Assembly (NCBI GenBank): GCA_013141015.1
Contig: JABFRT010000008.1
Coordinates: 8,637-72,636 of the forward strand
From: Hyphomicrobium sp.
GTDB lineage: Bacteria > Pseudomonadota > Alphaproteobacteria > Rhizobiales > Hyphomicrobiaceae
DNA: 64,000 nt
Direction: 5' to 3'
The notes under the pieces were generated by a model. The model saw only the letters and a list, made by a program, of their open reading frames with translations, did no database searches and was not told the origin of the DNA. This document shows positions 6,155 to 64,000 of the stretch, in pieces (the stretch's first letter is position 1; every line of letters starts with the position of its first letter). The position numbers and the translations under genes were made by a program.

Positions 6155-6181
6155 CGCACAGCCGCCGGAGGCCAGTCCGCA

Positions 6182-7798
6182 TCACACTTGCGCGCCGTCC
6201 TTCAACAGCTTGTAGTTGATGCTGTCGAGCAGCGCTTCAAAACTCGCATCAATGATGTTGGGCGAAACGCCGACCGTCGTCCAGCGGGCGCCTGTCTCCG
6301 TGTCGTGGCTTTCAACAAGCACGCGCGTCACGGCTTCGGTGCCACTCGTCCCCGTTTGCGTCAGAATGCGAACCTTGTAGTCCACCAGCTCCACGTTCTC
6401 GATGTGCTTTTGATAGCGGCCAAGATCGCGGCGCAGGGCGGTATCCAGTGCGTTGACCGGGCCGTTGCCTTCGCCAACCGAAACAAGTGGTTCTTCGCCC
6501 GCAATCGACACTGAGACAACGGCTTGCGATTGCGTGGCGCCGCGCCCCTGCCCGTCTGCCGGACGTTCGACGATGACCCGGAAACTATCGACGGCGAAAT
6601 AGCGCGGCACGTCATCAAGCATGCGGCGGGCCAGCAATTCAAATGACGCTTCAGCCGCTTCATAAGCGTAACCGCCGTCTTCGCGCAGCTTCACTTCATC
6701 CAGCAAAGCCTGCACCTTGGCCGCATCCTTGCCGGCACCCAGTTGAAGCCTGTCGAGCGCCGCCATCATAGACGAGCGTCCACCCTGCTTCGAGACTAGA
6801 ATACGCCGCTCGTTGCCGACGCTCTCGGGCCGCACGTGCTCGTAGGTTTCGGGCTCCTTCAACAAGGCAGAGGCGTGAATGCCAGCCTTCGTCGCGAACG
6901 CGCTTTCGCCGACATAAGGCGCGTGCCGGTCGGGCGCCTCGTTCAAGATTTCGTCCAGCACACGGCTTGCGTGCGTCAGCTTCTGCAGGCGCTCCGGCGT
7001 CACGCTGGTTGAGAAATGATTGGCGAACTCGCTTTTCAGCAGCAGCGTCGGAATGATCGATGTCATGTTGGCGTTGCCGCAGCGCTCGCCAAGCCCGTTG
7101 AGCGTGCCCTGGATCTGGCGGCATCCGGCGCGCACAGCCATCAGCGTGTTGGCGACGGCATTTTCCGTATCGTTGTGCGTATGGATGCCGAGATTGGCGC
7201 CCGGCACGTGACGCGCCACATCGGCAACGATGTCGGCCACTTCATGGGGCAGTGTTCCGCCGTTGGTGTCGCACAGCACTACCCAGCGCGCACCGGCATC
7301 ATAGGCGGTCTTCGCCACGCTCAGCGCGTAGTCGCGATTGCCCTTATAGCCGTCGAAGAAATGTTCACAATCGACCAAGGCTTCGCGCTGCGTCTCAAGA
7401 ATGGCGCGCACCGACTGGCCAACGGATTCAAGGTTTTCTTCGTTCGTAATGCCAAGCGCCACGCGCACATGATAGTCCCACGACTTGGCGACCAGGCAGA
7501 TGCTGTCGGCCTGCGATTGCAGCAAAGCCTGCAGACCCGGATCATTGGACACCGAACGCCCGGCCCGCTTGGTCATGCCGAAGGCTGTAAAGCGCGCCGA
7601 CTTCAACTCCGGCTTGGTTGAAAACAATTCCGAGTCAGTGCTGTTGGCACCTGGGTATCCACCCTCGATGTAATCGAGCCCCATGTCATCGAGCACGCGC
7701 ATGATGCGGCGTTTGTCGGACAGCGAAAAATCAACGCCCGTCGTCTGCGCCCCATCGCGCAAGGTGGTATCATAAAGATAGAGACGTTCTTTGGTCAT
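6182..7798 (-). CDS. cimA: Citramalate synthase (LeuA-related, CimA type)
   Basis: 538 aa. N-terminus LYLYDTTLRDGAQTTGVDFSLSDKRRIMRVLDDMGLDYIEGGYPGAN and length match the citramalate synthase branch of the IPMS family. Confidence 0.8.
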   Translation of the reverse strand: MTKERLYLYDTTLRDGAQTTGVDFSLSDKRRIMRVLDDMGLDYIEGGYPGANSTDSELFSTKPELKSARFTAFGMTKRAGRSVSNDPGLQALLQSQADSICLVAKSWDYHVRVALGITNEENLESVGQSVRAILETQREALVDCEHFFDGYKGNRDYALSVAKTAYDAGARWVVLCDTNGGTLPHEVADIVADVARHVPGANLGIHTHNDTENAVANTLMAVRAGCRQIQGTLNGLGERCGNANMTSIIPTLLLKSEFANHFSTSVTPERLQKLTHASRVLDEILNEAPDRHAPYVGESAFATKAGIHASALLKEPETYEHVRPESVGNERRILVSKQGGRSSMMAALDRLQLGAGKDAAKVQALLDEVKLREDGGYAYEAAEASFELLARRMLDDVPRYFAVDSFRVIVERPADGQGRGATQSQAVVSVSIAGEEPLVSVGEGNGPVNALDTALRRDLGRYQKHIENVELVDYKVRILTQTGTSGTEAVTRVLVESHDTETGARWTTVGVSPNIIDASFEALLDSINYKLLKDGAQV

Positions 7799-21318: not shown

Positions 21319-21521
21319 AATATGGGCCCCCTCGCTTCATGTTTCAGCGTAATATCATTCAGCGCACCACAATACGCTTAGTCCGCCGTTCGTAGCGTGC
21401 GCAAGGTCTACGCCGGTGCCCGCCGCGGTTCAACCCAACACGGCGCCTGGCGCTTAACATGGCGCCTCCGTGACAGTCGGGCGCGTGGCGGCTTGCTCAA
21501 ATTCCGGTCATCAGAGGGCTT

Positions 21522-22199
21522 ATGAACACCTGGACCCTGGTTTTTGACCTCGACGGCACGCTGGTCGATACCGCACCCGACTTGGCGGCATCGACCAATC
21601 ACGTGTTACGCAGATTGGGCCTCTCCTCCGTAGCCGAAGGTGATATCCGCCCGTTTGTCGGACATGGCGCGCTGGTGATGGTGGAGCGCGCCGCCGCTGC
21701 TCAAGGCCGCGCTCTTGCGCAACAAGAGCTTTATGACCTGTTTGACGTTTTCATCACCCACTACACCGCCAACATATCGGCGCACAGTAAACCCTATGCC
21801 GATGTCATAAGCGTCTTGAAGCGTTACCAAGATCGGGGCGCGCGGTTGGCTGTGTGCACCAACAAGATCGAGGCCCATGCCCGCGCACTGTTGGAGGCAC
21901 TCGACATGACAAAGTATTTTGCGGCCATCATAGGGCGCGACACTCTTGGCATTTTCAAACCCGATCCCGGCCACCTGACGGGCACGATCACCTTGGCTGG
22001 TGGAGACCGCCGCCGCGCGCTTATGGTCGGCGATAGCGAAACCGATATCCGCACCGCCAAGGCCGCCAACATCGCCGTTGTTGCGGTTGATTTCGGCTAC
22101 AGCGTCGAGCCGGTCGCAAGCTTTAACCCCGACGCAGTCATCAGCCACTATCGTGACTTTGAACGCGCAGCCGCGCGCCTGATGTCACAGTGCGCGTGA
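21522..22199 (+). CDS. gph: HAD-family phosphoglycolate phosphatase
   Basis: 225 aa. HAD motif I FDLDGTLVDT and motif IV MVGDSETD. Confidence 0.75.
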   Translation: MNTWTLVFDLDGTLVDTAPDLAASTNHVLRRLGLSSVAEGDIRPFVGHGALVMVERAAAAQGRALAQQELYDLFDVFITHYTANISAHSKPYADVISVLKRYQDRGARLAVCTNKIEAHARALLEALDMTKYFAAIIGRDTLGIFKPDPGHLTGTITLAGGDRRRALMVGDSETDIRTAKAANIAVVAVDFGYSVEPVASFNPDAVISHYRDFERAAARLMSQCA

Positions 22200-26626: not shown

Positions 26627-26701
26627 GGGCGGTTAGCTCAGCGGTAGAGCACACGCTTCACACGCGTGGGGTCATAGGTTCAATCCCTATACCGCCCACC
26701 A
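26627..26701 (+). tRNA. tRNA-Val (anticodon CAC)
   Basis: Hand-folded cloverleaf. Acceptor GGGCGGT/ACCGCCC, D arm GCTC..GAGC, anticodon stem CACGC/GCGTG with loop TTCACAC, T arm ATAGG TTCAATC CCTAT, encoded CCA. Confidence 0.9.
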
Positions 26702-38830: not shown

Positions 38831-39919
38831 ATGCAGGCGCTCAAAGCGCTTATCGCCGTGTCACCCGCAACGGCGTTGGCTGTGGGGGGAGCGATCATCG
38901 GGTTGCTATTTGGCGCAATCGTCAGCCGGACGAATTACTGCACGATGGGCGCCATCACCGACTGGCGGCTAACCGGCGACAAAGGCCGGCTGGGCGCGGT
39001 GGCGCTGGCTGCTGCGACGGCGATGACCGGCGCTCAATGTCTCGACGCATATGGTGTCGTCGAACTGTCAAAATCGATGTATCTCGCGCCGCGCATCAAT
39101 TGGGCTGGCGCGCTCGGCGGCGGACTGCTGTTTGGCTATGGCATGGTCTACGCGGGCGGGTGCCCAAGCCGCACTCTGATCCGCGCCGGCGGCGGCGATG
39201 TCCGCGGTCTCGTCTCTCTCGTCGTCATGGCTATTGCCGCATACGCCACAATCAGCGGCGTGCTGGCGGGAGCGCGCGTGGCACTTGAAAACGCAACGGC
39301 CATTGACGTGAAGGCGTTTGGCGCACCCACGCAGCATCTCGGTGAATTGCTCTATCGAGCGCATGTGACGGCGTCACCGGCATCTTTGATTGCGCTCTTA
39401 GCGGTACTCATTCCGCTCCTTGCTTTTGCCGCCGGCCCAGCGCGCGTGTTCTCGCGTGGCATCAACATAGCAGGTGGGCTGGCGGTTGGCGGACTGGCCA
39501 TTGCCGGTTGGGCGCTAACGGGTCTCGCCAGCGATGAGTTCGCTGCATCTCCCCTCCAGCCCGTGTCGCTCAGCTTTGTGCGCCCCGTTGCCGATACCAT
39601 CGATTGGATTGAGCGCTCCACCGCGCTTGGCATGCCGGGCTTCGGCGTGACTTCCGTTTTGGGCGTGCTTGCGGGCGCAAGTCTTGCGGCGTGGCTCTCG
39701 GGATCGTTCCGCCTGATCGGATATTCCGACCGCCGCGACGCGATCCGCCACGTAGCGGGCGCCGCCGCAATGGGCATTGGCGGCGTGATGGCGCTTGGTT
39801 GCACCATTGGCCAAGGCGTCAGCGGACTATCAACGCTGTCCGTGCAGTCGCTGATCGCCTGCGCGGCAATTGTCGCTGGCGCCGTCATTGGCCTGCAAAG
39901 ACTTGAGAAGAGCCTCTAG
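38831..39919 (+). CDS. YeeE/YedE family (thio)sulfur transporter
   Basis: Likely start M25 of the track ORF (MQALKALIAV...). Polytopic, with conserved Cys motifs RTNYCTMG, GGCPSR and LGCTIGQG. Confidence 0.8.
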   Translation: MQALKALIAVSPATALAVGGAIIGLLFGAIVSRTNYCTMGAITDWRLTGDKGRLGAVALAAATAMTGAQCLDAYGVVELSKSMYLAPRINWAGALGGGLLFGYGMVYAGGCPSRTLIRAGGGDVRGLVSLVVMAIAAYATISGVLAGARVALENATAIDVKAFGAPTQHLGELLYRAHVTASPASLIALLAVLIPLLAFAAGPARVFSRGINIAGGLAVGGLAIAGWALTGLASDEFAASPLQPVSLSFVRPVADTIDWIERSTALGMPGFGVTSVLGVLAGASLAAWLSGSFRLIGYSDRRDAIRHVAGAAAMGIGGVMALGCTIGQGVSGLSTLSVQSLIACAAIVAGAVIGLQRLEKSL

Positions 39920-42462
39920 TCGCGGCCGATGACGACGACCGCGCGGCCATCTCTCAGCGATTGGCCGGGCGACGTGTTGGGCCGCGCTTCCATATTGGGC
40001 GCCCGCGACTGGTTGCGGCGTGCGGCCTGCGCCTTGGCATTGCGGGCGCGTTCGGCTTTCTCCGGCATCCGGCGCAATTCGGCTTCTGTCACCAGCGTAT
40101 CCTGGATGAAGTTCTCCCAGTTGCCGAGCAGCGTGAAGCGCTGCCTTTCGAAGTCGTGCTCGATACCCGTTGGTGCGGCGGATGATGTCGAACAGCGCGC
40201 TATCAAGGTCTCCGTGCCATCGGCCTTGAAGCGCAACTGATACGGCGCGTCTGGTGCCGGAATACTCAGCGTCTTGCCGGCTTGAATGAGATTGTCTTTC
40301 TCGAAATCGTTGGGCATCAGAACCGTCGCCTTGCCTTCGGCGTCGATGCTGACAACCGTGAGAAAGCAATCGGTATCGGCTTGCGCTTTGATGGTCACAA
40401 GATCGCCCGCCGTTGGCACAAGCTTGTCGATCCACACGCTGAGGCCAATTTCGGATTTTACGTCGCGCAAGAAGCCGCCCGAGCCTTGAACGGACTGCGG
40501 CTTGTCGATGCCTTTGAGCAGCGCAAACAGACGGTCGAGATCGGTCCGCGGCAGCACACCTTGCTGCAGGCGGCGGGCAAGAGCCGCAGCCGCGCCTTCC
40601 GTTGTGCTCAGCGTTTTCATAAATGCGTCGCGATCAAGACCGGCTTCAGCAACCGCCGCTTTGACATCGGACCCGCCACGATAGTGCCGGGCGAGTGACG
40701 AGACGATCTCTTCTCCCTTCACAGTCAGATCCGGATCGATCTTGGCTGCGGTGAGAGCCGAGCGGTAGCGGTCATTGTCGCCACTGACCAGAAGGCCAAT
40801 TTCGCTGTCGCTCGGGTACATGGCGAGCGCGCTGTCGGCGAGGTCCTTGGCAAGCGTTGAGGCCCCGCTTGTGGCATAGGGCCTGAAATCATCGCGGAAG
40901 ACTTTGATGCCGTTGGCGTGGCAGGCAAAACAGTTGCTGCCCGCTTTGGTCACCGGCTCAAGTGCATTGCTCTCGGTGCCCGCATAGGCCTTTTCAATGC
41001 CCGGCAAGACGCGATCGACGCGATTTCCGGCGCCGTCAAAAACGGCATAAGCAAAAAAACCATTCGGCAAGGCAAACACGCTGCGGATTTCGTCCGGCTT
41101 GAACGGCGCCTTGATGGATGCCGTCGATTTGGGGCCCAATGGGTGCTCAAACAGATCCTGATCGCCTGTGCTGGTCGCGAAATCGTACATCAACCACATC
41201 GGCCCCCGGCCACCGGCGTGGCGTTCCGCAAGCCTGTTGCCCCGCGTAATCATGCTATTGCGCACGGCGATGCGCCGGGCAGCACCCGTCTTAATGCCTT
41301 GATCGATATCGACGCCATTCATACGTGCCAGTTCCGGCAACTTCGATGGCAACCCAAGCAGCGCATAATAGAGCGGCGGCTCGGTCGCGGCGGCAGCAAA
41401 CCAATCGCCTTTGATCAAAGGCAGCGCTGCCCCCGCTGACGTTTTGATGTCGGCCGGAAACGTGACGTCCGGCAATGCCGGATAGTCCCGCTGGATCAAA
41501 TCCCAATGGCCAGAAACCCAGCCGAAGTCCGAGAGCTTGACGGCAAGCAGTGTGCCGGCCGGATCAAGAGCCGTCAGCCGCTGCGGCTCTGGCGCCCATG
41601 ACAGTGCGTTGAACACTTTGGTCAGCGCCTGGCGGTACGCGTCGATGTTGGCGAGCGGCTCACACGCATTGTAGAGGTGGATGAGCGAAACAAAGCGCAG
41701 GTCTTTCGAACTGTCACGCTCAAGGCGTTGGGCTTCGCGCATCAACGCATCGCGGTCCTCGGGGCGTATTGGCTTGCGATCGGGACAGGCTTGGACTGAT
41801 GGCGGCAAATCGCCAATCCAATCGCGGACAGCCTCAATGTCATCGGGGCGCGGTTCGCTGCCGTCCGTAATGCCGGCATAGACGTCGAGCGGCGCGTGGC
41901 GCGTGACCAGAATATCGTAGACCGGCGATGCGTCCGGCAGGCCTGGGCGGACGGCCAGCGGATCACGCGCCAGTTCGTCGATGGCCAGAATGTTGGCGAT
42001 GCTGCCGGAGGCGAGCGGTTGCTCAGTCCGGCCGGTCTGGTGGCACCGCGCGCAATGGCCATCAAACACCGCATAGGCTTTGGCCGCCCGCGCCTCGTCC
42101 GGCCGTGGCGGCACCGTGAACCCGGGGAACATCGGCGGCGGTGGAGGGGGCGGCGGTGGTGGCGCGGGTGGACCGGAGATGGCGGGGTCGCCGGCAGCGC
42201 CAGGTGTTGGCGGCGCCGTCGCGCCCGGTACAGCGGAGGCCGGCTGTTGCGGATCGGCCGCGGGAGATATCGCGGGTGCCGCAGCAGGTGGGGCCACTTG
42301 CGGCCCGGCGGGCGAAGCGGCTGGCGCTTGCGCCCGGGTGACAGCTGTGCCCCCCAGCATCATCGCGATGCACAGCATGGCCATCCGCGCGTGCAATCGC
42401 GCCGGGCACACTTTCCACATGGCACGGCTGGCACGCAGCCTTGTCATCCTGGCGTCACGCAT
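39916..42462 (-). CDS. Secreted multidomain protein: Pro/Ala-rich linker, two CxxCH heme motifs, C-terminal DUF4384-like domain
   Basis: 848-aa ORF; a start at M27 (42384) gives the signal peptide MAMLCIAMMLGGTAVTRAQA. It has a run of 10 Pro, then CARCH and CFACH. The C-terminal LSVWIDKLVPTAGDLVTIKAQADTDCFLTVVSIDAEGKATVLMPN resembles DUF4384. Confidence 0.6.
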   Translation of the reverse strand: MRDARMTRLRASRAMWKVCPARLHARMAMLCIAMMLGGTAVTRAQAPAASPAGPQVAPPAAAPAISPAADPQQPASAVPGATAPPTPGAAGDPAISGPPAPPPPPPPPPPMFPGFTVPPRPDEARAAKAYAVFDGHCARCHQTGRTEQPLASGSIANILAIDELARDPLAVRPGLPDASPVYDILVTRHAPLDVYAGITDGSEPRPDDIEAVRDWIGDLPPSVQACPDRKPIRPEDRDALMREAQRLERDSSKDLRFVSLIHLYNACEPLANIDAYRQALTKVFNALSWAPEPQRLTALDPAGTLLAVKLSDFGWVSGHWDLIQRDYPALPDVTFPADIKTSAGAALPLIKGDWFAAAATEPPLYYALLGLPSKLPELARMNGVDIDQGIKTGAARRIAVRNSMITRGNRLAERHAGGRGPMWLMYDFATSTGDQDLFEHPLGPKSTASIKAPFKPDEIRSVFALPNGFFAYAVFDGAGNRVDRVLPGIEKAYAGTESNALEPVTKAGSNCFACHANGIKVFRDDFRPYATSGASTLAKDLADSALAMYPSDSEIGLLVSGDNDRYRSALTAAKIDPDLTVKGEEIVSSLARHYRGGSDVKAAVAEAGLDRDAFMKTLSTTEGAAAALARRLQQGVLPRTDLDRLFALLKGIDKPQSVQGSGGFLRDVKSEIGLSVWIDKLVPTAGDLVTIKAQADTDCFLTVVSIDAEGKATVLMPNDFEKDNLIQAGKTLSIPAPDAPYQLRFKADGTETLIARCSTSSAAPTGIEHDFERQRFTLLGNWENFIQDTLVTEAELRRMPEKAERARNAKAQAARRNQSRAPNMEARPNTSPGQSLRDGRAVVVIGRD

Positions 42463-42591
42463 TCCTTAAAACTCCAGCGGCCCGATTGCAGCCCCCTTGA
42501 GGCCGCTGTTTCGTTGGCACAATAATGACCACCCGCCCGCACGCCTAGTCCGTTTCAGCCACACGCATCTGATGCGGGTTGTATCGGCGCA

Positions 42592-44484
42592 CTAGCGCTG
42601 AGCCATAATCTGCAGGGCTTGGCGCGTCTCGGTATTGAAAAACCCGTGGATCGTGCCGCGATAGAGGCCCTGCAACGCCAGCTGCTTTTGGATTTGGCGC
42701 CGCGTCGCGAAGGACAATCCTTGGGCAGCAATGTCGATTCCCCGCCCCTCGGTGCGCCCAGCCTGCACGGCCTTCAAGGCGGTTTCAGCCGCGCGCGCCG
42801 GATTTCGGGCCACACCGCGGCCTCGATCATAGATACGCGCCAGTTCAACGTAGGCTGCTGCATGGCCATACCCCGCCGCCGCCTCAAGCAAGCCCAGGGC
42901 GCTGGCCGTGTTGGGCCGAGCGCCTTCCCCGGCAAGGTCCATCAGCGCCAAATTGTACATGGCGCGCGGATGCTTGTTTTCAGCCGCCAAACGGTAAAGA
43001 CGGCGCGCCTCGGCGCTATTCTTGGCAACGCCTTTGCCTTGACTATAGAGGTAGGCGAGGCTGGTTATGCCAGCAACATCGCCGCCGTCGGCTGCAGCGC
43101 GGTACAAGCGCAACGCCTCGACCAGATTGGGTGCTGCCCCCTCGCCGAACTCGTGCATCGTGCCAAGGGCTGCCATTGCGGCCGGATATCCGGCGTCCGC
43201 TGCCCGCTCATACCAGCGCGCGGCTTCCAGTAAATCCTTAGATACACCGCGGCCTTTGTCATAGGCCCGGCCAACACGGTATAACGCGGCTGGCAATCCT
43301 TCCGCCGCCGCCTCGGTGTAAAGCTTCACGGCCAGCGCGATGTCCGCCGCCGGGGCACCATCCGCATCGAGCATCAAGGCTTTGTCGTGGGTCGCCTGCG
43401 CCGCCATCAGACGTTCGGTCGCGTCAATCCCGCCGGTCATCATCCAAGACCACGGCGTGCGTGTGTGCAAGGCCTCGATTTTTGCAATCCGCACGGACGC
43501 CAGTTCGGCAAACAGTCCGTTGGGATAGCGGGTGATGTGGTTGTGCAGAACTACCACATCCTGGCTGGATTGAATGGCCTCCCAGGCGGTCATCTCTGCA
43601 AGACGCGCGGTCTGCGCTGCCGTTTCGGGTGCAACAGTGTTGGATGCCTGCGGCACAAACGAAAACTGCGTGACGAGTGACGAGTGCTCCCATGGCGTCT
43701 GCCGGTTGGCAGTGCGCTCGATGACGTGGCGGCGGGTGGCGCGGAATACATCTTCGAGTGTTTTGCCGGGTTGCAGCATCTCGCTGGCGAGCGCCGCGGT
43801 GTAGGGGCTATTTGCACCAATGCCGTCGTCGGCCAACTGGCCAGGCCCCGTCGCATAGGCGATTATGGTGCCAGCCGGCGCGACCACCGAGGCAAGCCCC
43901 GTCACCGTTGCAGTCCACACACCCGCCGCAAACGGATTATCCCGGCACGCATCCAGCACAACGATATTCAACCGCGTTGATGAGCGCGCCATCGTCCGCA
44001 TCACACTGTGCAGCGGCACGCCGAATTCGGTCACGTCTTCCGTAGTGGCAATCGTCGCGCCGAGAGGGATCAGATAGTTGTCACCATCCACCTGCACACC
44101 GTGGCCGGCATAGTAGAATAGCGCGACTGCGCCTGGGGTTTGAAGGCGGCTGCCGAAATCGGCAACGGCGCGGCGCATGTCCTCGGCGGTCCCGTCCATG
44201 ACGGTCATGACATCGAAGCCAGCTGCTGCAAGCGTGCGGGCCATCAGGCCGGCATCGTTTCGCGGGTTCTTCAAGCGGCTTGTTGCATAACTGGCGTTAC
44301 CGATGATCAGCGCTATGCGCGGCTCTGCGCCAGCGGCCACTGGCGTTTGCGGCGCGGCGCCCGCGGCCGCTGGTCCGCACGCAAGCATGGCCGCCAGGAG
44401 CGCACAGCCCAATGCCGCCGCCAACCGCTTCCGGACCACGCTCCACGCCCCCCTCGTCAGCCCTTCGGCTGCCATCCAGCCCAT
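42592..44484 (-). CDS. Secreted caspase-family (peptidase C14) protein with Sel1 repeats and a C-terminal peptidoglycan-binding-like domain
   Basis: 630 aa. Signal peptide; His/Cys dyad contexts FYYAGHGVQ and VVLDACRDNPF. It has several Sel1-type repeats (AARWYERAADAGYPAAMAALG etc.). The tail is RQIQKQLALQGLYRGTIHGFFNTETRQAL. Confidence 0.75.
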   Translation of the reverse strand: MGWMAAEGLTRGAWSVVRKRLAAALGCALLAAMLACGPAAAGAAPQTPVAAGAEPRIALIIGNASYATSRLKNPRNDAGLMARTLAAAGFDVMTVMDGTAEDMRRAVADFGSRLQTPGAVALFYYAGHGVQVDGDNYLIPLGATIATTEDVTEFGVPLHSVMRTMARSSTRLNIVVLDACRDNPFAAGVWTATVTGLASVVAPAGTIIAYATGPGQLADDGIGANSPYTAALASEMLQPGKTLEDVFRATRRHVIERTANRQTPWEHSSLVTQFSFVPQASNTVAPETAAQTARLAEMTAWEAIQSSQDVVVLHNHITRYPNGLFAELASVRIAKIEALHTRTPWSWMMTGGIDATERLMAAQATHDKALMLDADGAPAADIALAVKLYTEAAAEGLPAALYRVGRAYDKGRGVSKDLLEAARWYERAADAGYPAAMAALGTMHEFGEGAAPNLVEALRLYRAAADGGDVAGITSLAYLYSQGKGVAKNSAEARRLYRLAAENKHPRAMYNLALMDLAGEGARPNTASALGLLEAAAGYGHAAAYVELARIYDRGRGVARNPARAAETALKAVQAGRTEGRGIDIAAQGLSFATRRQIQKQLALQGLYRGTIHGFFNTETRQALQIMAQR

Positions 44485-57487: not shown

Positions 57488-58492
57488 CTATGCCGCGCTG
57501 CCGTGGGTGTCCGCGTCAAGCACGGTCTCAACCAAACGCATGGCCTCTGCAATGACGCCAGCATTCGCATCGCGACCTGTTGCATGCTCACTCAAATAGC
57601 GGCGGAACATGCGGCCGCGCGGCTGGCCATGATAGAGACCCAAAACATGTCGCGTGATGTTGGATAGGCGTCCACCGCCCGCAATGTGCTGTTGCGCGTA
57701 AGGGATCAGTGCGAGCAGCGCTTCCCGGCGCGAACGGAGCGGCGCGGCACAATCAAAAAACCGGCGGTCAACATCGCCAAGAAGTGCCGGATCATGATAG
57801 GCGGCGCGCCCCAGCATCACACCATCGACATGGGCCAAGTGCTCCGCGCAAGCATCCAGCGTTTCGATTCCACCGTTGATCACGAGTCTCAAATCCGGCC
57901 GCGCCTGCTTCAAACGGTAGACGCGCGCATAGTTCAGCGGCGGCACCTCGCGGTTCTCTTTTGGTGACAGCCCCTTGAGCCATGCCTTGCGCGCATGCAC
58001 GATAAACGTCACGCACCCGGCATCAGAGACGTGCTCAACAAAGCGCTGCAAATCAACATCGTCGTCTTGCTCATCAATGCCGATGCGGCATTTGACGGTG
58101 ACGGGAAGTGCCACGCGCTTTTGCATCGCCGCGACGCAGTCTGCTACAAGCTGCGGCTCTGCCATCAGGCACGCACCAAAGCGTCCCTCCTGCACGCGGT
58201 CCGACGGGCAACCGGCATTGAGATTGATCTCATCATAGCCAAACTCAGCGCCGGCCTCTGCGGCAGCGGCCAGTTTCGAAGGATCTGAACCGCCGAGTTG
58301 TAAGGCTATTGGATGTTCTTCCCCGCTATAGCCAAGTAGTCTGTCGCGGTTTCCCCGCAGCACCGCATCCGCAGTTACCATCTCGGTGTACAACAGCGCA
58401 TGGCGCGTCAGCTGACGGTGGAAGTACCGGCAGTGCCGGTCACTCCAATCCATCATAGGCGCCACGCAAAATCTATGTGCTTGGATTTGCAC
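57488..58492 (-). CDS. dusA: tRNA-dihydrouridine(20/20a) synthase
   Basis: 334 aa, GTG start. RFCVAPMMDWSDRHCRYFHRQLTRHALLYTEMVT is a typical DusA N-terminus. Confidence 0.9.
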   Translation of the reverse strand: MQIQAHRFCVAPMMDWSDRHCRYFHRQLTRHALLYTEMVTADAVLRGNRDRLLGYSGEEHPIALQLGGSDPSKLAAAAEAGAEFGYDEINLNAGCPSDRVQEGRFGACLMAEPQLVADCVAAMQKRVALPVTVKCRIGIDEQDDDVDLQRFVEHVSDAGCVTFIVHARKAWLKGLSPKENREVPPLNYARVYRLKQARPDLRLVINGGIETLDACAEHLAHVDGVMLGRAAYHDPALLGDVDRRFFDCAAPLRSRREALLALIPYAQQHIAGGGRLSNITRHVLGLYHGQPRGRMFRRYLSEHATGRDANAGVIAEAMRLVETVLDADTHGSAA

Positions 58493-58640
58493 GTATTTTC
58501 CAGTATTATCAGCGGACTAGAACGTGAACGTGAGTAATTTTGTTCGCAGCTGTTCTCACGTTTTTGCACACGTTTGCAGGTTCATTACTCACGAATTGCT
58601 CACGTGAGCACGGCGTGAGCAAACCAGAGGATACCTGGGT

Positions 58641-59711
58641 ATGGCGTCAATCACCAAGCTTCCATCTGGTCGCTGGCGTGCCCAGCTCCGCCGGAGACAA
58701 AAAAGCGTATCAAAGACGTTCCGCTTAAGAGCCGACGCAGAACGCTGGGCCACGGAACAGCAAGACCGCCTGAGCCGTGGGGAAGGCATCAACAAGCGCC
58801 TGCCCGACAGCGTCGGAACCCTTGGCGACATGATCGACCTCCATCTGACCGACATGGCCGAGGTGGGAAAAGAAGCCCGCCGCAGCAAAGAAGCGACCCT
58901 TCTCAGGCTCAAAGACACGATCGGCACCATCCGCCTCCCCAACCTCACCCGCGAGCGGATTATTGAATTTGGACGGGATCGCGCCAAAGAGGGTGCAGGT
59001 CCAGCGACCCTTGCCATTGACCTGAGCTTCATCAACACGGTTTTGAAGCATGCTTCTGCCATTTACGGATATTCGGTTCCTACAGAGCAAGTTCGGCTTG
59101 GCCGTAACGCCCTTGTCATCCTCGGGCTCGTAGGAAAATCCACGGAACGTGACCGCCGACCAACCGAAAAGGAACTTTCACGCATCCTGGCCTTCTTCCG
59201 CACCAACCGGGCCGTGCTCATTCCCATGGAACGGGTGATCAAATTTGCCGTTGCGACAGCGATGCGCCAGGACGAAATTACCCGGATCTTATGTGATGAT
59301 TTCGATCTCCAAGGCCCTTCGGTGCTCATTCGGCAACGCAAGCATCCGCGTGAGAAAAAAACGAACAACCAAATCATCCCTTTGGTTGCAGATACGGGTT
59401 TCAACGCGGTTGCCCTCATCAAAGAGCAGTTGGGCATCGTTTCAAAGAAGGGGACCATCTTCCCCTATAACCCGCGTTCGATCGGAACCGCTTTCCGGAG
59501 AGCCTGCATTGAATTGCAGATCGATGACCTCCACTTCCACGATCTTAGACATGAAGGCATTTCGCGCCTGTTCGAGGCCGACTGGGATATTCCCCAGGTT
59601 GCGGCCGTGTCGGGGCATAAGGACTGGAAGATGCTTCAACGCTACACGCATCTGCGACCAAGCTTCATTGCCAGCCGTGCCGGCCGAGTGGTTGTCCCCC
59701 GTGTTGCCTAG
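58641..59711 (+). CDS. Tyrosine-type site-specific integrase (dusA-associated)
   Basis: 356 aa. Catalytic residues in context: ATAMRQDE (R), HFHDLRHE (HxxR), VSGH (H), LQRYTH (Y). Its start lies 148 bp from the dusA start codon. Confidence 0.9.
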   Translation: MASITKLPSGRWRAQLRRRQKSVSKTFRLRADAERWATEQQDRLSRGEGINKRLPDSVGTLGDMIDLHLTDMAEVGKEARRSKEATLLRLKDTIGTIRLPNLTRERIIEFGRDRAKEGAGPATLAIDLSFINTVLKHASAIYGYSVPTEQVRLGRNALVILGLVGKSTERDRRPTEKELSRILAFFRTNRAVLIPMERVIKFAVATAMRQDEITRILCDDFDLQGPSVLIRQRKHPREKKTNNQIIPLVADTGFNAVALIKEQLGIVSKKGTIFPYNPRSIGTAFRRACIELQIDDLHFHDLRHEGISRLFEADWDIPQVAAVSGHKDWKMLQRYTHLRPSFIASRAGRVVVPRVA

Positions 59712-59713
59712 GC

Positions 59714-60694
59714 TCACGCACTCTTCTGATCGAGGAGTGGCAGTTCGGGTTGTTCATTGAGGGCGTGATCGTAGCTGTAGCGATGGGTTTTCTTCCGCCC
59801 ATCGCCGCGCACATCCACCTTCCACGAACGCAAGCCCCCTGCCCTCACCATGTCTTCAAAGGCTTTGCGGCATTTGCTGCGAAAATCACGCCTGGTGTTG
59901 GCATTTTCTGTTTCGTTCCAGAGGTCCCGCCCCACCAACTCTGCAAGCCGGTCTTCATCGACCCAGTTATGACGATGGAGGCTATCGATATATGGCCAGA
60001 ACGATTTGGCGTAATCCGACGACAACGCAAACTGCACATCGGCATTCAAACTGACCAGTTTGGCTGACATCACCATCGTGGCCGTCCAATCGCCATAGTA
60101 CACCCGCACGCAGTCATCCAAACCAAGCCCGTCCCACTCGACATCGTTAAGTAGGTTACCCATTTTGCCCTTAGTTTTGGGCAGCTTCCCCTGCCGATAC
60201 TGTTCGAGTAGGCGCGTCTCGTCGCCCTCGTAAACCGTGACCACGACTTTCTTGATATCTTCAAACGTGAAGTGAAGAGCGGCGATGTTATTCACGTGCT
60301 GGGTAAGCCCCATCACCTTCAGAAGCTCCCGCCACGTGGTATCGACTTTCAGGTGTCGGGTGTACCCAACGGGGCTTTCATCGTCTTTCCGCGTTTCACT
60401 TTCGTGACCCAACCGAAACACCGCATAGAGTGCATCACGGTGCTGAGATCCCAGTTCCCTTCCCGCTACACGGACGACCGAATGTCCCCTTACGACGTAA
60501 AGCCGCTCAAACGCTGAATCTGTAATGAGGCCGCGCCGTTTGGGAGCAAAGGCGCTCGTTCGCACCAACCGAGCCGGAACCTTCGAAGGTCGATTGCGGC
60601 CACGGCGTCCGCCAACCCGCTCAAGGCGCTTTTTCTCAGCATCCGATAACTCGCGTACCAAAAGCGTCTCTTTCTTCCGTACACATACTTTCAC
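59714..60694 (-). CDS. Plasmid replication initiator-like protein (TrfA-like pattern)
   Basis: 326 aa, GTG start. A basic N-terminus is followed by GHSVVRVAGRELGSQHRDALYAVFRL and TWRELLKVMGLTQHVNNIAALHFTFEDIKK. This resembles the TrfA-type initiator pattern from memory. Five iterons begin 8 bp upstream of its start. Confidence 0.55.
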   Translation of the reverse strand: MKVCVRKKETLLVRELSDAEKKRLERVGGRRGRNRPSKVPARLVRTSAFAPKRRGLITDSAFERLYVVRGHSVVRVAGRELGSQHRDALYAVFRLGHESETRKDDESPVGYTRHLKVDTTWRELLKVMGLTQHVNNIAALHFTFEDIKKVVVTVYEGDETRLLEQYRQGKLPKTKGKMGNLLNDVEWDGLGLDDCVRVYYGDWTATMVMSAKLVSLNADVQFALSSDYAKSFWPYIDSLHRHNWVDEDRLAELVGRDLWNETENANTRRDFRSKCRKAFEDMVRAGGLRSWKVDVRGDGRKKTHRYSYDHALNEQPELPLLDQKSA

Positions 60695-60701
60695 TCAAAA
60701 C

Positions 60702-60831
60702 GGGAACAGCGGCAACACTTTTGGGAACAGTCGCCACAATTTTAAGCATCCCTCTGTGCACTCCACGTCACAGGGAACAACCGCCACAAAATTAGGAACA
60801 GCCGCCACGAATTCGGGAACAGACGACACAG
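60702..60831 (+). repeat. Iteron family 1: five 17-bp direct repeats (consensus GGGAACAGCCGCCACAA)
   Basis: Copies at 60702, 60723, 60773, 60794 and 60815 (GGGAACAGCGGCAACAC, GGGAACAGTCGCCACAA, GGGAACAACCGCCACAA, AGGAACAGCCGCCACGA, GGGAACAGACGACACAG). Spacing is 21 bp within the two blocks. Confidence 0.85.
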
Positions 60832-61052
60832 AACACGCGGTGCACATTGTCTAACTCATTGTAATTTCGTCCCGCACGCGAATGCTGATCACCCTCCCCC
60901 AAACATCCCGCTGCAGCATTCATCGACGCAATCGAAAGCACACGTTCTTCTAGTTCATTGTTTTATTTCACATTGCGTTTGCAATCTGTGGCGGCCCTTC
61001 CCTATCTCCGGGCCTCGATCACCGACTAACGAACGAATCTCACTCTTCAAAC

Positions 61053-61268
61053 GGAAGCGAGACCACACATTTGCGTATGTCATTGATAGATTTGGAATGT
61101 CACCAACATGTTGTGACATCGCTTCCCAAACTTAACCCTCAACGGGACAAGCCCTGGGGATATTTCCAAACCTCGGTCGAGTTTCATGGAAAGGCCGTCA
61201 CACTTTCTGGAAGCGAGACCACATAAACAGGAAATGACGTCACCGAATTGGGAAGCCACGTCACACAC
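61053..61268. repeat. Iteron family 2: about seven 15-17-bp repeats (consensus GGAAGCGACGTCACACA)
   Basis: Direct copies at 61053 (GGAAGCGAGACCACACA), 61094 (GGAATGTCACCAACA, shorter), 61188 (GGAAAGGCCGTCACACT), 61209 (GGAAGCGAGACCACATA), 61230 (GGAAATGACGTCACCGA) and 61252 (GGAAGCCACGTCACACA). An inverted copy lies at 61112-61127. The last four are spaced 21-22 bp. Confidence 0.8.
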
Positions 61269-61310
61269 ACAGGCAAATAGATTTTTTCTTTCAATGCTTT
61301 CCAGTACGCT

Positions 61311-61350
61311 AGAGACTTAAGAGACTTTAAGAGACCACTTAGAGACCGTT
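61311..61350 (+). repeat. Four tandem ~10-bp repeats with AGAGAC core
   Basis: AGAGACTTA AGAGACTTTA AGAGACCACTT AGAGACCGTT, with spacing of 9, 10 and 11 bp, immediately before the DnaA box. Confidence 0.8.
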
Positions 61351-61355
61351 GCCTC

Positions 61356-61364
61356 TGTGGATAA
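61356..61364 (-). promoter_or_regulatory. Perfect consensus DnaA box (TTATCCACA on the minus strand)
   Basis: The plus strand reads TGTGGATAA at 61356-61364, inside the repeat-rich non-coding region between rep and parA. Confidence 0.6.
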
Positions 61365-61668
61365 GTTCTTCTCATAACCAAGACCGCAAGAAAGAATGCT
61401 GGAGAATGGTCAGGGGAGTTCGAATTTCCGAATAAGAATCTCGGACAGGTAACCATCAAGTCGCTCCTGATATAGCTTAAGCATCACCCATCAAGAGGCC
61501 TACGGCCAGTTTTTTTATATGAAAAGGGGAAACCCGTTTTTCTCGTTGTCCGAGGTTCTGCAACCTACCGAATTATCGGGAAAACTGTGGCGGCTGTTCC
61601 AACTTTTCCATACCAGCGCTTACAATAATTTCCAACATTTCATCGCACGCAATTTGATTGGTTCGTTC

Positions 61669-61920
61669 TGTGCATTTGGCCAAGTGACTACTTGGGCAAT
61701 TATGCAAGTGTCCATTTGTCCACCGCATCCACGGTTGAAATAGCTGCCCTGCACATTTGTGCACTTGCACACTTGTCCATCAAAAAACATACGAGAAAAC
61801 CAAGATTGGCACATTTGGACACTTGAACATTTGGTCAAGATTCAAATGCCTCACAGCGATATGTCGATTCATGACCATTTGCACATTTGGCCAAGTGTCC
61901 ACGTGTCCATTTGGACACGA
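61669..61920. repeat. Dense array of CAYTTG/CAARTG hexamers upstream of parA (candidate centromere/operator)
   Basis: I count about 15 hexamers in about 250 bp. Examples are GCATTTGGCCAAGTGAC (61672), CAAGTGTCCATTTGTCCAC (61705), GCACATTTGTGCACTTGCACACTTGTCCA (61751) and GCACATTTGGACACTTGAACATTTGGTCAAG (61809). Another is CATTTGCACATTTGGCCAAGTGTCCACGTGTCCATTTGGACACG (61876). Confidence 0.75.
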
Positions 61921-61981
61921 TGGGTGCCTCTTGATGATGCGCTTTCGTTGACCAGGACGAGGGGGCCTCTCAAAGTGAGGC

Positions 61982-62694
61982 ATGGACACATACACTCCCA
62001 TCTCCCAATCCAGCGCGATCATCGTCGCATTTGCGTCAAGCAAAGGCGGTGTGGGTAAGTCGACCAGTTGCGCAGCGCTCGCCGGCGCCTTGTGCCGTCG
62101 CGGTGCACCCGTGCACATCATAGATTTAGACCAGACGCGGACACTTCATCGTTGGTACAGCCGATTTCATCCCAACATGCCGAATTTCCATGTAGAAGCA
62201 GTCGAAGAGGCCAATTTCATGGGCCATATCCGCAACATTTATCAAACGCACAAGGGCTTCATCTTGGTCGACGTCGCTGGTTCATTTGCAAAGGCAATGA
62301 TCAAGCAAGCACAATTGCACATTTGACCATTAGCCCTGCGAAGCTCTCAGAACCGGATATTGTTGAGGCCGTCAAGCTCAGCAGGGAACTAGCTGACCTA
62401 TCGAACGCTATTGGCAAACCAATACCTCACCGGCTTTTAATCAACGAAGTGTCGCCGCTGTTCCCAACTTACCAGCGTGCCGCGATTGCAGATATCGCCA
62501 GGTCTGGAATGCAGCGCTTCGACACAATGCTGACAGAACGAGCGGCATATGCCGAAATCTTTATGTCAGGGAATCCGCCTCACTACGCGGACCAATCTCG
62601 CGATCCTGTTCGAAAGGCTGTTGTTGAACTGGATATGTTGGCCCGTGAGGTTTGCGATCTTCTTTTCCCCGCTCAACACAAGGAGGCTGCGTAA
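61982..62694 (+). pseudogene. parA: ParA-family partition ATPase (small, type Ib-like), interrupted by a frameshift near 62300-62326
   Basis: The N-part (61982..62326) carries Walker A AFASSKGGVGKSTS and ends at TGA 62324. The C-part continues in the -1 frame (..IAHLTISPAKLSEPDIVEAVKL...RAAYAEIFMSG...) to TAA 62694. The RBS-like AGTGAGG precedes the ATG. Confidence 0.7.
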
Positions 62695-63048
62695 ATGTCG
62701 AAGTCCTCCATCAACATCCAACCGATTGATTTTGACGCGGCAACTCGTGCGGTCGAACGTTTCAGCAAAGACCGGCACATTCCATCTATGACCTACCCTG
62801 GGGAAGGGGAGGGGCCCACCGTCGAAACACCCAAAGCCACAGAAGTCACAACTCTTCCGGTCCTACAGACCCGCCGCTCGATCAAGCGCATACCCGTCGA
62901 GCTACCTGACTATGTTGTTGAAGACGTGAAGCGCCGGGCCCTCGATGGTAACTGCTCAGCCCGCCACATCATCATGCGAGCGCTACGCGCTTATGGAGTG
63001 CATATCGCAGATGAAGATATGCCGGAAGATGGCCGACGAAACCGTTAG
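62695..63048 (+). CDS. Ribbon-helix-helix (ParG/CopG-like) partition/centromere-binding protein candidate
   Basis: 117 aa. The ATG immediately follows the parA stop (TAAATG). The C-terminal KRIPVELPDYVVEDVKRRALDGNCSARHIIMRALRAYG has a beta-strand/helix/helix RHH pattern. Confidence 0.55.
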   Translation: MSKSSINIQPIDFDAATRAVERFSKDRHIPSMTYPGEGEGPTVETPKATEVTTLPVLQTRRSIKRIPVELPDYVVEDVKRRALDGNCSARHIIMRALRAYGVHIADEDMPEDGRRNR

Positions 63049-63093
63049 ATGTCCATTTGCACATTTGGACATTTGTTCAGTTGGCCAAATAGA
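63049..63093. repeat. Second cluster of CAYTTG-type motifs immediately downstream of the par operon
   Basis: GATGTCCATTTGCACATTTGGACATTTGTTCAGTTGGCCAAAT shares TGTCCATTTG, GCACATTTGGAC and TTGGCCAA with the upstream array. Confidence 0.7.
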
Positions 63094-63131
63094 CAGAGCG
63101 ACATCCTGATCGCGATTTACTCACATGCATA

Positions 63132-63353
63132 TTGACGTATGCTGATGGTTCTGGGCACTATGTTGGAATGAACCCAAAACTGACAACGCCAATGCCATAT
63201 TCAACAAGCTCTGAGGCGTTTGCGGCTCAAGCTATTCCGAGTGCCAACACGGAAGCGAGTTCGATTTCTGAGGAGATCAAATGTATTCGCGAACGACTCG
63301 ACGAAATGCTTTCCGGTGTGCTTGATTTTCTCGATAAACACCCGGCCCGATGA
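63132..63353 (+). CDS. Hypothetical small protein (island)
   Basis: 73-aa ORF (TTG start; an ATG alternative lies at 63168). Its stop overlaps the start of the next ORF (ATGA). No family recognised. Confidence 0.35.
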   Translation: MTYADGSGHYVGMNPKLTTPMPYSTSSEAFAAQAIPSANTEASSISEEIKCIRERLDEMLSGVLDFLDKHPAR

Positions 63354-63601
63354 ATTCAGACAACCTAACAATATCTGAGCAGGAACTGAGGGCTTTAGGT
63401 GACCAGGAAGTCCAACTCGAAAATGCATTACAAGTACTGCGCATACGATGCCGACAAGAGGGTCTTTCTGGTCAACATCATGTCGCTGAACAGGCGTGGG
63501 AGCTCTTTGAAAAATATCGTAGTGAACTTGCAGACCTACAAACCAGAATCAGGAAGCTAGAAGCACGCTTTTATTCATCCCAGCCACGCCTGCGGAAATA
63601 A
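63350..63601 (+). CDS. Hypothetical small coiled-coil protein (island)
   Basis: 83-aa ORF translationally coupled to the previous one. Heptad-like charged sequence (ELRALGDQEVQLENALQVLRIRCRQ...ELADLQTRIRKLEARF). Confidence 0.4.
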   Translation: MNSDNLTISEQELRALGDQEVQLENALQVLRIRCRQEGLSGQHHVAEQAWELFEKYRSELADLQTRIRKLEARFYSSQPRLRK

Positions 63602-63752
63602 TTCCAGCCTAACCGATGTTCCACTGTTTCACGGTTCGCATAATGAATCTTATGTTAAATACAACCACAAATAACCCAAATTTGCACTTCGTCACTATAC
63701 GACCTATATTATCTTTATGTGTGCATTGTCGATTGATCTTTCCGTGGATGAA

Positions 63753-64000
63753 ATGGCTATTGAACCAGAACTTCGTCGTATGGGTTATGGTCAGATTTTT
63801 GATTTTTGGGTGCGCACCGTAAAATATGATCGTGACACTTTGGGGGACATGTGGTGCTTGCTTCTCAGGGCTGTGCATGCCGAGACACGTGGCGACCTCG
63901 GAAGGATCACTCCAGAAATGATGCGGCGCATTGTTGCCGGAGTAGAGGCTGAGACTAGGCCTAGTCTTAAGCCCCGCCAACCACTTTCCAGCGACACTCC
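63753..64000 (+). CDS. Hypothetical protein, N-terminal fragment running off the right edge
   Basis: Hand-translated from ATG 63753 (an in-frame GTG lies at 63744). It reads MAIEPELRRMGYGQIFDFWVRTVKYDRDTLGDMWCLLLRAVHAETRGDLGRITPEMMRRIVAGVEAETRPSLKPRQPLSSDT and is open to the window end. It competes with minus-strand ORFs 63609..63980 and 63791..63997. Confidence 0.35.
   Translation, partial: MAIEPELRRMGYGQIFDFWVRTVKYDRDTLGDMWCLLLRAVHAETRGDLGRITPEMMRRIVAGVEAETRPSLKPRQPLSSDT

Follow-up and report, generated by a model that had tools for sequence, protein, structure and literature searches.

The right-hand end of a 64,000-nt stretch of contig JABFRT010000008.1 of Hyphomicrobium sp. (the window) is best explained as the left end of a mobile integrative element, which carries an iteron-type theta replicon and a type-Ib-like partition cassette and was inserted by a dusA-specific integrase at codons 13-16 of dusA in a Hyphomicrobium-like chromosome (probability roughly 0.7). 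The element can be read from the junction between dusA and the integrase gene (int) to position 64000, its visible part comprising ~5.5 kb. As in other elements of this class, it would give dusA a replacement 5' end and promoter. The integrase, together with a directionality factor, would excise the element as a circle, on which the replication initiator candidate (Rep) would bind the iterons and, with the host DnaA, open an AT-rich tract. The circle would replicate and be segregated by ParA and its ribbon-helix-helix (RHH) partner, so that the excised form would be kept until re-integration or transfer.

The insertion site is made up of the following features, in which L-numbers, here and below, are the labels of relatives' loci or contigs that were compared with the window:

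57488-58492, minus strand: dusA, encoding tRNA-dihydrouridine synthase A, the target gene (NCBIfam DusA equivalog, E 1.4e-154, residues 3-323)
58444-58456, unstranded: predicted crossover core TCCAATCCATCAT of the left attachment (att) site, attL, placed by means of the att repeats in L024 and L031
58521-58622, unstranded: cluster of CTCACG/CGTGAG(CA) repeats between dusA and int, six copies in ~100 nt
58641-59711, plus strand: int, encoding a dusA-associated tyrosine integrase of 356 amino acids (aa) (PF00589, E 5.9e-24, residues 175-339; PHROG_1 integrase, E 5e-47)

On the basis of the equivalog match, dusA is full length in the window. It is divergent from int and the two start codons are exactly 148 nt apart, which is the arrangement and spacing given in a preliminary description of the window. 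The recombinase was there attributed to the integrase family that uses the dusA hotspot, and the comparison with its relatives bears this out. In a scan of one genome per species, sixteen integrase relatives (39-73 % identity) were found, mostly in Hyphomicrobium, other Hyphomicrobiaceae and further alphaproteobacterial metagenome-assembled genomes (MAGs), and in 14/16 of these dusA lies divergent from the integrase gene at a distance of 114-199 nt. The window integrase is also ~40 % identical to temperate-phage integrases, one of which is annotated as a shufflon-type recombinase. Taken together, sequence and gene context place it functionally in the dusA-associated class.

The 5' end of dusA and the sequence upstream of it resemble those of other integrase-occupied dusA loci, in which a common coding core (GCNCCNATGATGGAYTGGAC) is preceded by an element-type leader. 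The element thus appears to supply the first ~12 codons of dusA as well as its promoter. A strict search with a 26-nt core revealed no second att site in the relatives, and the right-hand site (attR) was recovered in L024 and L031 by a short-word search. The signature expected of an attR is CCNATGATGGAYTGG preceded, in the orientation of dusA, by codons for a DusA N-terminus of the form ...HR(F/L)(S/C)VAPMMDW. ATGATGGACTGG recurs 9.7 kb downstream in L024, where codons for ...HRLSVAPMMDW precede it, and in L031 the second copy of the core is found 7.3 kb downstream, following codons for ...HRLCVAPMMDW. These codons represent the displaced original 5' ends of dusA. Since both attL and attR with the core are present in these two loci, the attL core of the window can be predicted at 58444-58456, where TCCAATCCATCAT is the reverse complement of ATGATGGATTGGA, which encodes the residues M-M-D-W of DusA.

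The intergenic region between dusA and int is packed with the CTCACG/CGTGAGCA repeat in the window and in L018-L020, while other repeats occupy the same position in further integrase relatives, namely GTGCACA (L021-L023 and L030) and GTACG/TTCGCA (L026). Which repeat is present thus seems to depend on the clade of the integrase, as would fit arm-type or regulator sites, and the copies in the window are candidates for integrase arm sites or for operators of a regulator. A separate observation concerns L028 (1-520), an 8.5-kb contig encoding an integrase relative with 52 % identity, with an element-type leader upstream, no dusA and no terminal overlap. It may be the attP (excised) form of such an element, or an insertion at another site.

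The part of the window at positions 1-58 kb is chromosomal, as it carries housekeeping functions, including an FadE-type acyl-CoA dehydrogenase, citramalate synthase, NAD synthase, a DivJ/PdhS-like kinase and phosphomannomutase. The window shares synteny with Hyphomicrobium MAGs on the left side of dusA, while the cargo on the right side is different. The AT-richer DNA remarked upon in the preliminary description is reflected in the GC fraction, which is 0.60 over positions 1-57487 versus 0.52 in the element and 0.47 in its 1.29-kb non-coding origin region. The single Rfam match in the window is a tRNA gene at 26627-26698 (68.7 bits), with no RNA family detected inside the element, and a promoter and terminator scan gave counts under the shuffle expectation and was uninformative.

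The replicon of the element comprises the initiator candidate and a series of repeats beside its gene:

59714-60694, minus strand: rep, encoding the replication initiator candidate of 326 aa (identified by predicted fold, origin repeats and homologues on plasmids)
60703-60830, plus strand: iteron array A, five direct 15-mers GGAACAnnnGnnACA with 21-bp phasing (starts at 60703, 60724, 60774, 60795 and 60816)
60987-61127, unstranded: scattered iteron-like copies, inverted at 60988 and 61113 and direct at 61053
61188-61265, plus strand: iteron array B, four 15-mers GGAAnnnnnGnCAC(A/C) with exact 21-bp spacing (starts at 61188, 61209, 61230 and 61251)
61275-61346, plus strand: AT-rich tract with four helically phased AGAGAC repeats (32 % GC)
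61356-61364, minus strand: perfect DnaA box TTATCCACA, the sole perfect copy in the window
61586-61600, minus strand: inverted iteron copy GGAACAGCCGCCACA, conserved in L001 and L034

Rep had been described as TrfA-like, a label that fails at the sequence level and survives only loosely, at the level of the fold. The protein is not a sequence member of the Pfam families Rep_3, TrfA or IncFII_repA, and it has no match in Pfam, NCBIfam (E <= 0.01), PHROGs, PADLOC or the sequences of the PDB; its own family comprises 102 clusters at 50 % identity among 1.84 billion proteins. An AlphaFold2 model built with 25 homologues reached a predicted local distance difference test score (pLDDT) of 74 and a predicted template modelling score (pTM) of 0.68. 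When the model was compared with the PDB using Foldseek, the best 16 matches were all iteron-binding initiators (E 1e-6 to 1.4e-3, probability 1.00), among them RctB domains 2-3 (E 1e-6), Pi bound to iteron DNA (E 3.7e-5), RepE54 complexes and a complex of Rep with a DNA-unwinding element, and the matches following these 16 were low-probability homing endonucleases. Rep can thus be likened to RepE, Pi and TrfA, and the resemblance appears to be one of architecture only, within a family that seems to be undescribed. The model predicts the tandem winged-helix fold of iteron initiators, as is found in RepE (F), Pi (R6K) and RctB (Vibrio chromosome 2), and the gene likewise has direct repeats, an AT-rich tract and a DnaA box beside it. 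Rep differs from these three proteins in being only 9-13 % identical to them, in lacking a profile match and in having, in its N-terminal region, an invariant peptide that is not known from them.

It might be argued that the 326-aa protein is not an initiator but a winged-helix transcription factor or a nucleoid protein, with the repeats serving as its operators. Such a role would agree with the lack of sequence similarity to any characterised Rep and with a model that is only moderately confident (pLDDT as above, template modelling (TM) score of about 0.5). It is nevertheless considered highly improbable, as generic winged-helix regulators are absent from the best 16 structural matches, the gene is flanked by 21-bp-phased repeats, an AT-rich tract and a DnaA box, and the protein is the only initiator candidate on complete plasmids of 35-38 kb.

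The N-terminal peptide is an observation in its own right. Within residues ~30-60 of Rep, the sequence RGRxxPxKVPARLxRTSAFAPKRRGL is almost invariant in the 25 homologues, yet is predicted to be disordered (pLDDT below 50), and it might serve to dock a host replication factor.

Homologues of Rep sharing 42-55 % identity occur on 19 plasmid records of Aureimonas, Methylorubrum, Methylobacterium, Roseomonas and Skermanella, as determined by tblastn against plasmids. Two of these plasmids, pAU20f (35 kb) and p2META1 (38 kb), are complete, and p2META1 is reported to be present in 2-3 copies per genome (PMC2680597). On both, the homologue neighbours parA and an RHH gene and is the only candidate for a replication gene, none other being annotated. 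These plasmids of Aureimonas (pAU20f) and Methylorubrum (p2META1/p2METDI) therefore resemble the window in combining a homologous Rep (47-55 % identity) with ParA and RHH genes. They differ from it in being autonomous plasmids on which no tyrosine integrase is annotated, and in the sequence of their iterons. No hits were obtained in a megablast of the whole region against plasmids, nor in a scan of viral contigs with the Rep profile. Two Rep homologues in inverted orientation (88-1062 and 5853-6827) were observed on a single 10.7-kb metagenomic contig (L061). Compared with its counterpart in L034, Rep shows 96 % amino-acid and 83 % nucleotide identity, with a ratio of non-synonymous to synonymous substitution rates (dN/dS) of 0.02, and dN/dS ranges from 0.07 to 0.10 in comparisons with other relatives. 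Rep is thus intact and under strong purifying selection.

The origin repeats are located in the 1.29-kb non-coding stretch between rep and parA. The first GGAACAnnnGnnACA copy of array A begins 8 nt from the GTG start codon of rep, in agreement with the distance reported previously, and the array probably serves both as an autoregulatory operator and as origin iterons. What had been taken for a second iteron family is indeed a set of repeats, but these follow the same degenerate consensus as array A and constitute a second 21-bp-phased array (array B). The pattern GGAANNNNNGNCAC matches 14 times in the 64 kb, compared with 2.5 matches expected, and 0/100 shuffles reached this number; 10/14 of the matches fall inside 60724-61600 (0.9 kb). 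The lowest-GC 60-bp stretch of the intergenic region (61275-61334, 32 % GC) directly follows array B. The AGAGAC copies start at 61311, 61320, 61330 and 61341, with spacings of 9, 10 and 11 nt, and this AT-rich tract is a candidate DNA-unwinding element. The DnaA box is found ten nucleotides past the tract, so that the phased AGAGAC repeats and the perfect DnaA box of the preliminary description are both present (61311-61346 and 61356-61364). Iterons followed by an AT-rich repeat tract and a DnaA box form the classical layout of iteron-plasmid origins such as those of RK2, F and R6K, and the order of the features in the window corresponds to this layout.

The same organisation extends to the relatives. 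Array A is conserved in L001, L017, L034, L036 and L011, and the close relatives share an iteron array with 21-bp spacing at the start of rep, one to four copies of AGAGAC and a DnaA box with at most one mismatch. As in the window, the box follows the AGAGAC tract in L001, L034 and pAU20f; in pAU20f, four AGAGAC copies precede the DnaA-like box TTATCCCCA. In p2META1 (L008), the AGAGAC repeats and DnaA boxes are situated downstream of rep, at about 21400-21600, and not between rep and parA; its origin module thus appears to be rearranged relative to those of the window and pAU20f. The AGAGAC tract was also considered as a CtrA site and this reading was rejected, as the spacing in the tract is TTAA-N6-TTAA and that of the CtrA box is N7.

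The partition locus follows the origin region:

61666-61918, unstranded: upstream centromere-like arrays, 8-bp units with CAyTTG or its complement (clusters at 61754-61833 and 61876-61915)
61982-62694, plus strand: parA, encoding a Walker-type partition ATPase and split by a 1-nt deletion near 62302 (NCBIfam ParA_partition; Pfam CbiA/VirC1/MipZ)
62695-63048, plus strand: gene for the 117-aa ParA partner with a C-terminal RHH (profile of seven orthologues against the PDB)
63049-63090, unstranded: downstream centromere-like array, three or four CATTTG 8-bp units (cluster at 63054-63077, just after the RHH gene)

Type Ib partition systems, for example ParF/ParG, combine a small ParA with an RHH partner and short repeat arrays. 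The parA and RHH genes with their flanking 8-bp arrays resemble such a locus, and the type-Ib-like par operon bracketed by repeat arrays in the preliminary description is matched by CAyTTG-containing 8-bp units on both sides. Eleven of the 43 window-wide matches to these units fall in one 500-bp bin. The 117-aa partner alone has no match in Pfam. With the profile of seven orthologues, nine weak PDB matches were obtained, all of them RHH proteins and all aligned to the same C-terminal segment, the best being the CopG-family protein 9kkd (E 0.003). Its counterpart on p2META1 is annotated as RHH. The 117-aa protein is accordingly a candidate centromere-binding protein.

In the window parA is read in two frames, 61982-62326 and 62068-62694. 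The break is explained by one missing base near 62302 (CC to C) when the window is compared with L003. The two are otherwise 99.97 % identical over 2.9 kb, and an intact ParA of 237 aa is encoded both by L003 and by L002 from another MAG. The intact protein is small, contains a KGGVGKS motif and has no N-terminal DNA-binding domain. The frameshift is private to the assembly of the window, and because the source is a metagenome-assembled genome, it may be an assembly error.

The state of parA is one reason to consider that the locus is a plasmid captured by, or cointegrated with, a dusA island, which is now an inert, decaying remnant replicated passively with the chromosome. The arrangement of int and rep could be understood in the same way. 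The two genes are convergent, with stop codons 2 nt apart, and the int homology block ends at 59687 and the rep homology block starts at 59739, so that the modules are joined within the last codons of int and rep, suggesting a recombination joint. The C-terminal tail of the window Rep is shorter than in the relatives. The remnant would furthermore agree with the absence of a rep-par module near the closest integrase relatives and with the lack of a circular copy, both of which are discussed below. But Rep is intact and under strong purifying selection (dN/dS 0.02-0.10), the origin features (iterons, AGAGAC tract and DnaA box) are undamaged and conserved, and the single-base frameshift is absent from two independent near-identical assemblies. 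Of the decaying captured plasmid with a frameshifted parA, as previously suggested, the frameshift itself stands, while the case for decay is weakened by the selection on Rep and by the restriction of the frameshift to one assembly. A remnant is thus considered unlikely, and the distribution of integrases in the close Rep clade also argues for a stable design rather than an accident.

In this close clade (>=66 % identity to Rep), a tyrosine integrase is encoded nearby in six metagenomic loci as well as in L011, L017 and L034. At least four integrase types are linked to the clade, the window included. These comprise the dusA-type integrase of the window, a 437-aa integrase (L011 and L040), a 388-aa integrase (L017, L041, L043 and L045) and a P4-like integrase (L034, L042 and L046). 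The L011 locus lies within a contig of 3.03 Mb, beside methylene-tetrahydrofolate genes. More distant members of the Rep family (<60 % identity) are found on plasmids, including the circular 13.3-kb contig L047, and none of the query integrase types was detected near them. This linkage pattern is better explained by integrative elements exchanging a working replicon as a module than by a one-off capture followed by decay. No tRNA gene adjoins the alternative integrases. A tRNA-Pro gene was observed in L038 (10238-10315), 228 nt beyond the rep stop codon of a locus with an 83 %-identical Rep, and may be the integration site of yet another variant.

Several points weigh against a mobile integrative element with a functional replicon. 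Rep is without a sequence link to characterised initiators, so that its assigned function rests on fold, context and plasmid distribution. The element extends past 64000, and its far end and attR lie outside the window. Among the open reading frames (ORFs) of the visible 5.5 kb, cut at 64000, no directionality factor (PrtN/RdfN or HTH_17) was detected; a factor of the PrtN/RdfN type is present in ~64 % of the islands with dusA-associated integrases. The parA gene is frameshifted in the assembly of the window, and the whole-contig loci yielded no circular or episomal copy of the close Rep clade. Finally, a rep-par module occurs within 10 kb in 0/16 integrase relatives, and the module could therefore be a recent acquisition. 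The same result bears on the arrangement that the preliminary description had named as contrary to an inserted replicon, namely int-rep-par as core synteny at dusA. As neither a rep nor a parA homologue is encoded within 10 kb in these 16 relatives, the block is not part of the core synteny.

The integrative element described here can be compared with several known systems. Islands and prophages at dusA carry a divergent tyrosine integrase and insert in the conserved 5' end of dusA, with 21-bp semi-conserved att sites around ATGATGGAYTGG, and replication of DNA as well as conjugative transfer are among the functions of their highly variable cargo (Farrugia et al. 2015, PMC4482086). The element shares with these islands the divergent integrase and the new dusA 5' end supplied by the element, and their att behaviour is matched by L024 and L031. 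It differs from them in that its integrase is only ~40 % identical to the phage-borne ones, in that it carries a full plasmid maintenance module rather than a prophage, and in that no PrtN-type gene is visible.

A closer parallel in terms of the replicon is provided by dusA-specific Vibrio elements related to Salmonella genomic island 1 (SGI1), some of which encode putative initiators of the IncFII_repA type, and which provide the promoter of dusA (Durand et al. 2021, PMC8409611). About three copies per cell were measured upon excision induced by a helper plasmid, and independent replication is probably important in their life cycle (PMC8409611). Both these elements and that of the window are islands at the 5' end of dusA with a putative plasmid-type replicon. 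The Vibrio elements differ in encoding proteins with an IncFII_repA domain, whereas the window Rep belongs to another, undescribed family, in having an SGI1-like mobilisation backbone driven by IncC plasmids, and in that no partition locus is mentioned for them. General scans of the visible ORFs gave no suggestive match to mpsAB, traG/H/N or AcaCD-responsive promoters, for which no specific search was made. Theta replicons (SGI1 and TnGBS) and partition systems (SXT/R391) of integrative elements have been reviewed (Guedon et al. 2017, PMC5704250). Like SGI1, TnGBS and SXT/R391, the element of the window combines integration with a theta replicon and/or plasmid-type partition, which stabilise the excised circle (PMC5704250, PMC8409611). 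Unlike them, it has a Hyphomicrobiaceae host and another integration site, and neither their Rep (Rep_3) nor their partition proteins showed any detectable sequence homology to its products.

These comparisons raise the possibility that the replicon is transient and conditional as in SGI1, with Rep becoming active once the element is excised, as when a helper conjugative element is present, so as to prevent loss of the circle during mobilisation, and that the element is never a stable plasmid. In SGI1 a rep gene accompanies an iteron oriV, SGI1 as well as a dusA-specific Vibrio element occurs in several copies per cell upon helper-induced excision (PMC8409611), and transient replication is common in integrative elements according to reviews. 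The missing circular contigs of the close Rep clade would also be expected, and sister elements encode putative transfer or mobilisation genes, namely Rep_1 and FtsK-like genes (L001 and L017) and MobA with a coupling protein (L036 and L046). An active-partition cassette with centromere arrays on both sides, however, exceeds what a transient state needs, more distant members of the Rep family maintain true plasmids, and no helper-responsive regulatory element was identified. Purely transient replication is thus a possible, if doubtful, account of the element.

A further precedent is found in Pseudomonas islands of the pKLC102/PAPI-1 type, which encode an integrase and a ParA/Soj homologue, have a repeat-bearing oriV, and occur both integrated and as plasmids. 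They differ from the element of the window in being much larger and conjugative, in targeting tRNA-Lys and in carrying unrelated genes.

The preliminary description held an integrating element with its own replication and partition functions to be unusual for dusA islands, which was overstated, since cargo for replication had already been described for such islands (PMC4482086) and repA replicons for the Vibrio elements (PMC8409611). With replication and partition in integrative elements described by Farrugia, Durand and Guedon and their co-workers, the principle is already known. Novelty is confined to an initiator family that had not been annotated and has a distinctive origin, to a dusA element equipped with a full partition cassette, and to the alphaproteobacterial (Hyphomicrobium) setting. 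Genomic islands that retain the replication and partition functions of plasmids gain an alphaproteobacterial example; as these functions are already established for excised integrative elements, no new question is opened. The initiator family appears to drive a set of Hyphomicrobiales plasmids on which the gene is now labelled 'hypothetical protein'. With its 21-bp-phased iterons, AGAGAC AT tract and DnaA box, the compact origin signature is of use in typing plasmids and in designing vectors for methylotrophs. The linkage of one Rep clade to at least four types of integrase exemplifies how modules are exchanged between plasmids and islands.

The remaining visible cargo consists of small ORFs:

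63132-63601, plus strand: two small ORFs (73 or 53 aa, and 83 aa), conserved in the sister element L001 and without family matches
63717-64000, plus strand: start of a 101-aa ORF that crosses the end of the window (sequence of L002 and L004)

Searches with the ParB-like and 83-aa proteins yielded short contigs only. Past position 64000 the sequence continues for 2.05 kb in L002 and for 1.17 kb in L004, and only in these two is a gene of 466/479 aa seen on the minus strand after the 101-aa ORF. Its product has no Pfam, PADLOC or PHROG match, and nothing was found with the 479-aa query in the metagenome or viral-contig scans. The non-phage-like character of the cargo and its designation as a plasmid maintenance module in the preliminary description are in keeping with the scans of the readable part of the element (PADLOC, PHROG and viral contigs), in which no phage or defence signal was detected.

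Over 60495-63660 the sister element L001 shares 95 % identity with the window, and it carries CcdAB as well. A module comprising HTH_17, Rep_1 (rolling-circle), AAA ATPase and FtsK/SpoIIIE-like genes is conserved in L001 (3222-10387), L017 (14026-19084) and L020 (18657-21047), the last of which is a dusA island lacking the theta replicon. This module could be related to those of the integrative and conjugative elements of actinomycetes (AICEs), could represent a non-canonical relaxase with a coupling protein, or could be inovirus-like. AICEs of the pSAM2 type alternate between integrated and replicating states, and the HTH_17, Rep_1 and FtsK/SpoIIIE-like genes of L001, L017 and L020 recall their Xis, RepSA and TraSA. 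Unlike AICEs, the element of the window has a proteobacterial host and a visible replicon of the theta/iteron rather than the rolling-circle type, and the set of Int, Xis, rolling-circle Rep and FtsK/TraB is not found in the window. A far-reaching extension of these observations, which is speculative and judged to be quite unlikely as a whole, is that Rep defines an undescribed class of replicons, of which the Hyphomicrobiaceae branch is habitually coupled to interchangeable integrases. The resulting 'integrative plasmids' would be stable either as low-copy partitioned plasmids or as islands, and the module of L001, L017 and L020 would possibly mediate AICE-like transfer by a single translocase in a Gram-negative host.

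A minor observation concerns the chromosomal part of the window, where a protein of 630 aa containing a caspase-like domain (NCBIfam 'caspase, EACC1-associated type', E 4e-16) adjoins an 848-aa protein without a family match (39916-44484). This pair may constitute a conflict or defence locus.

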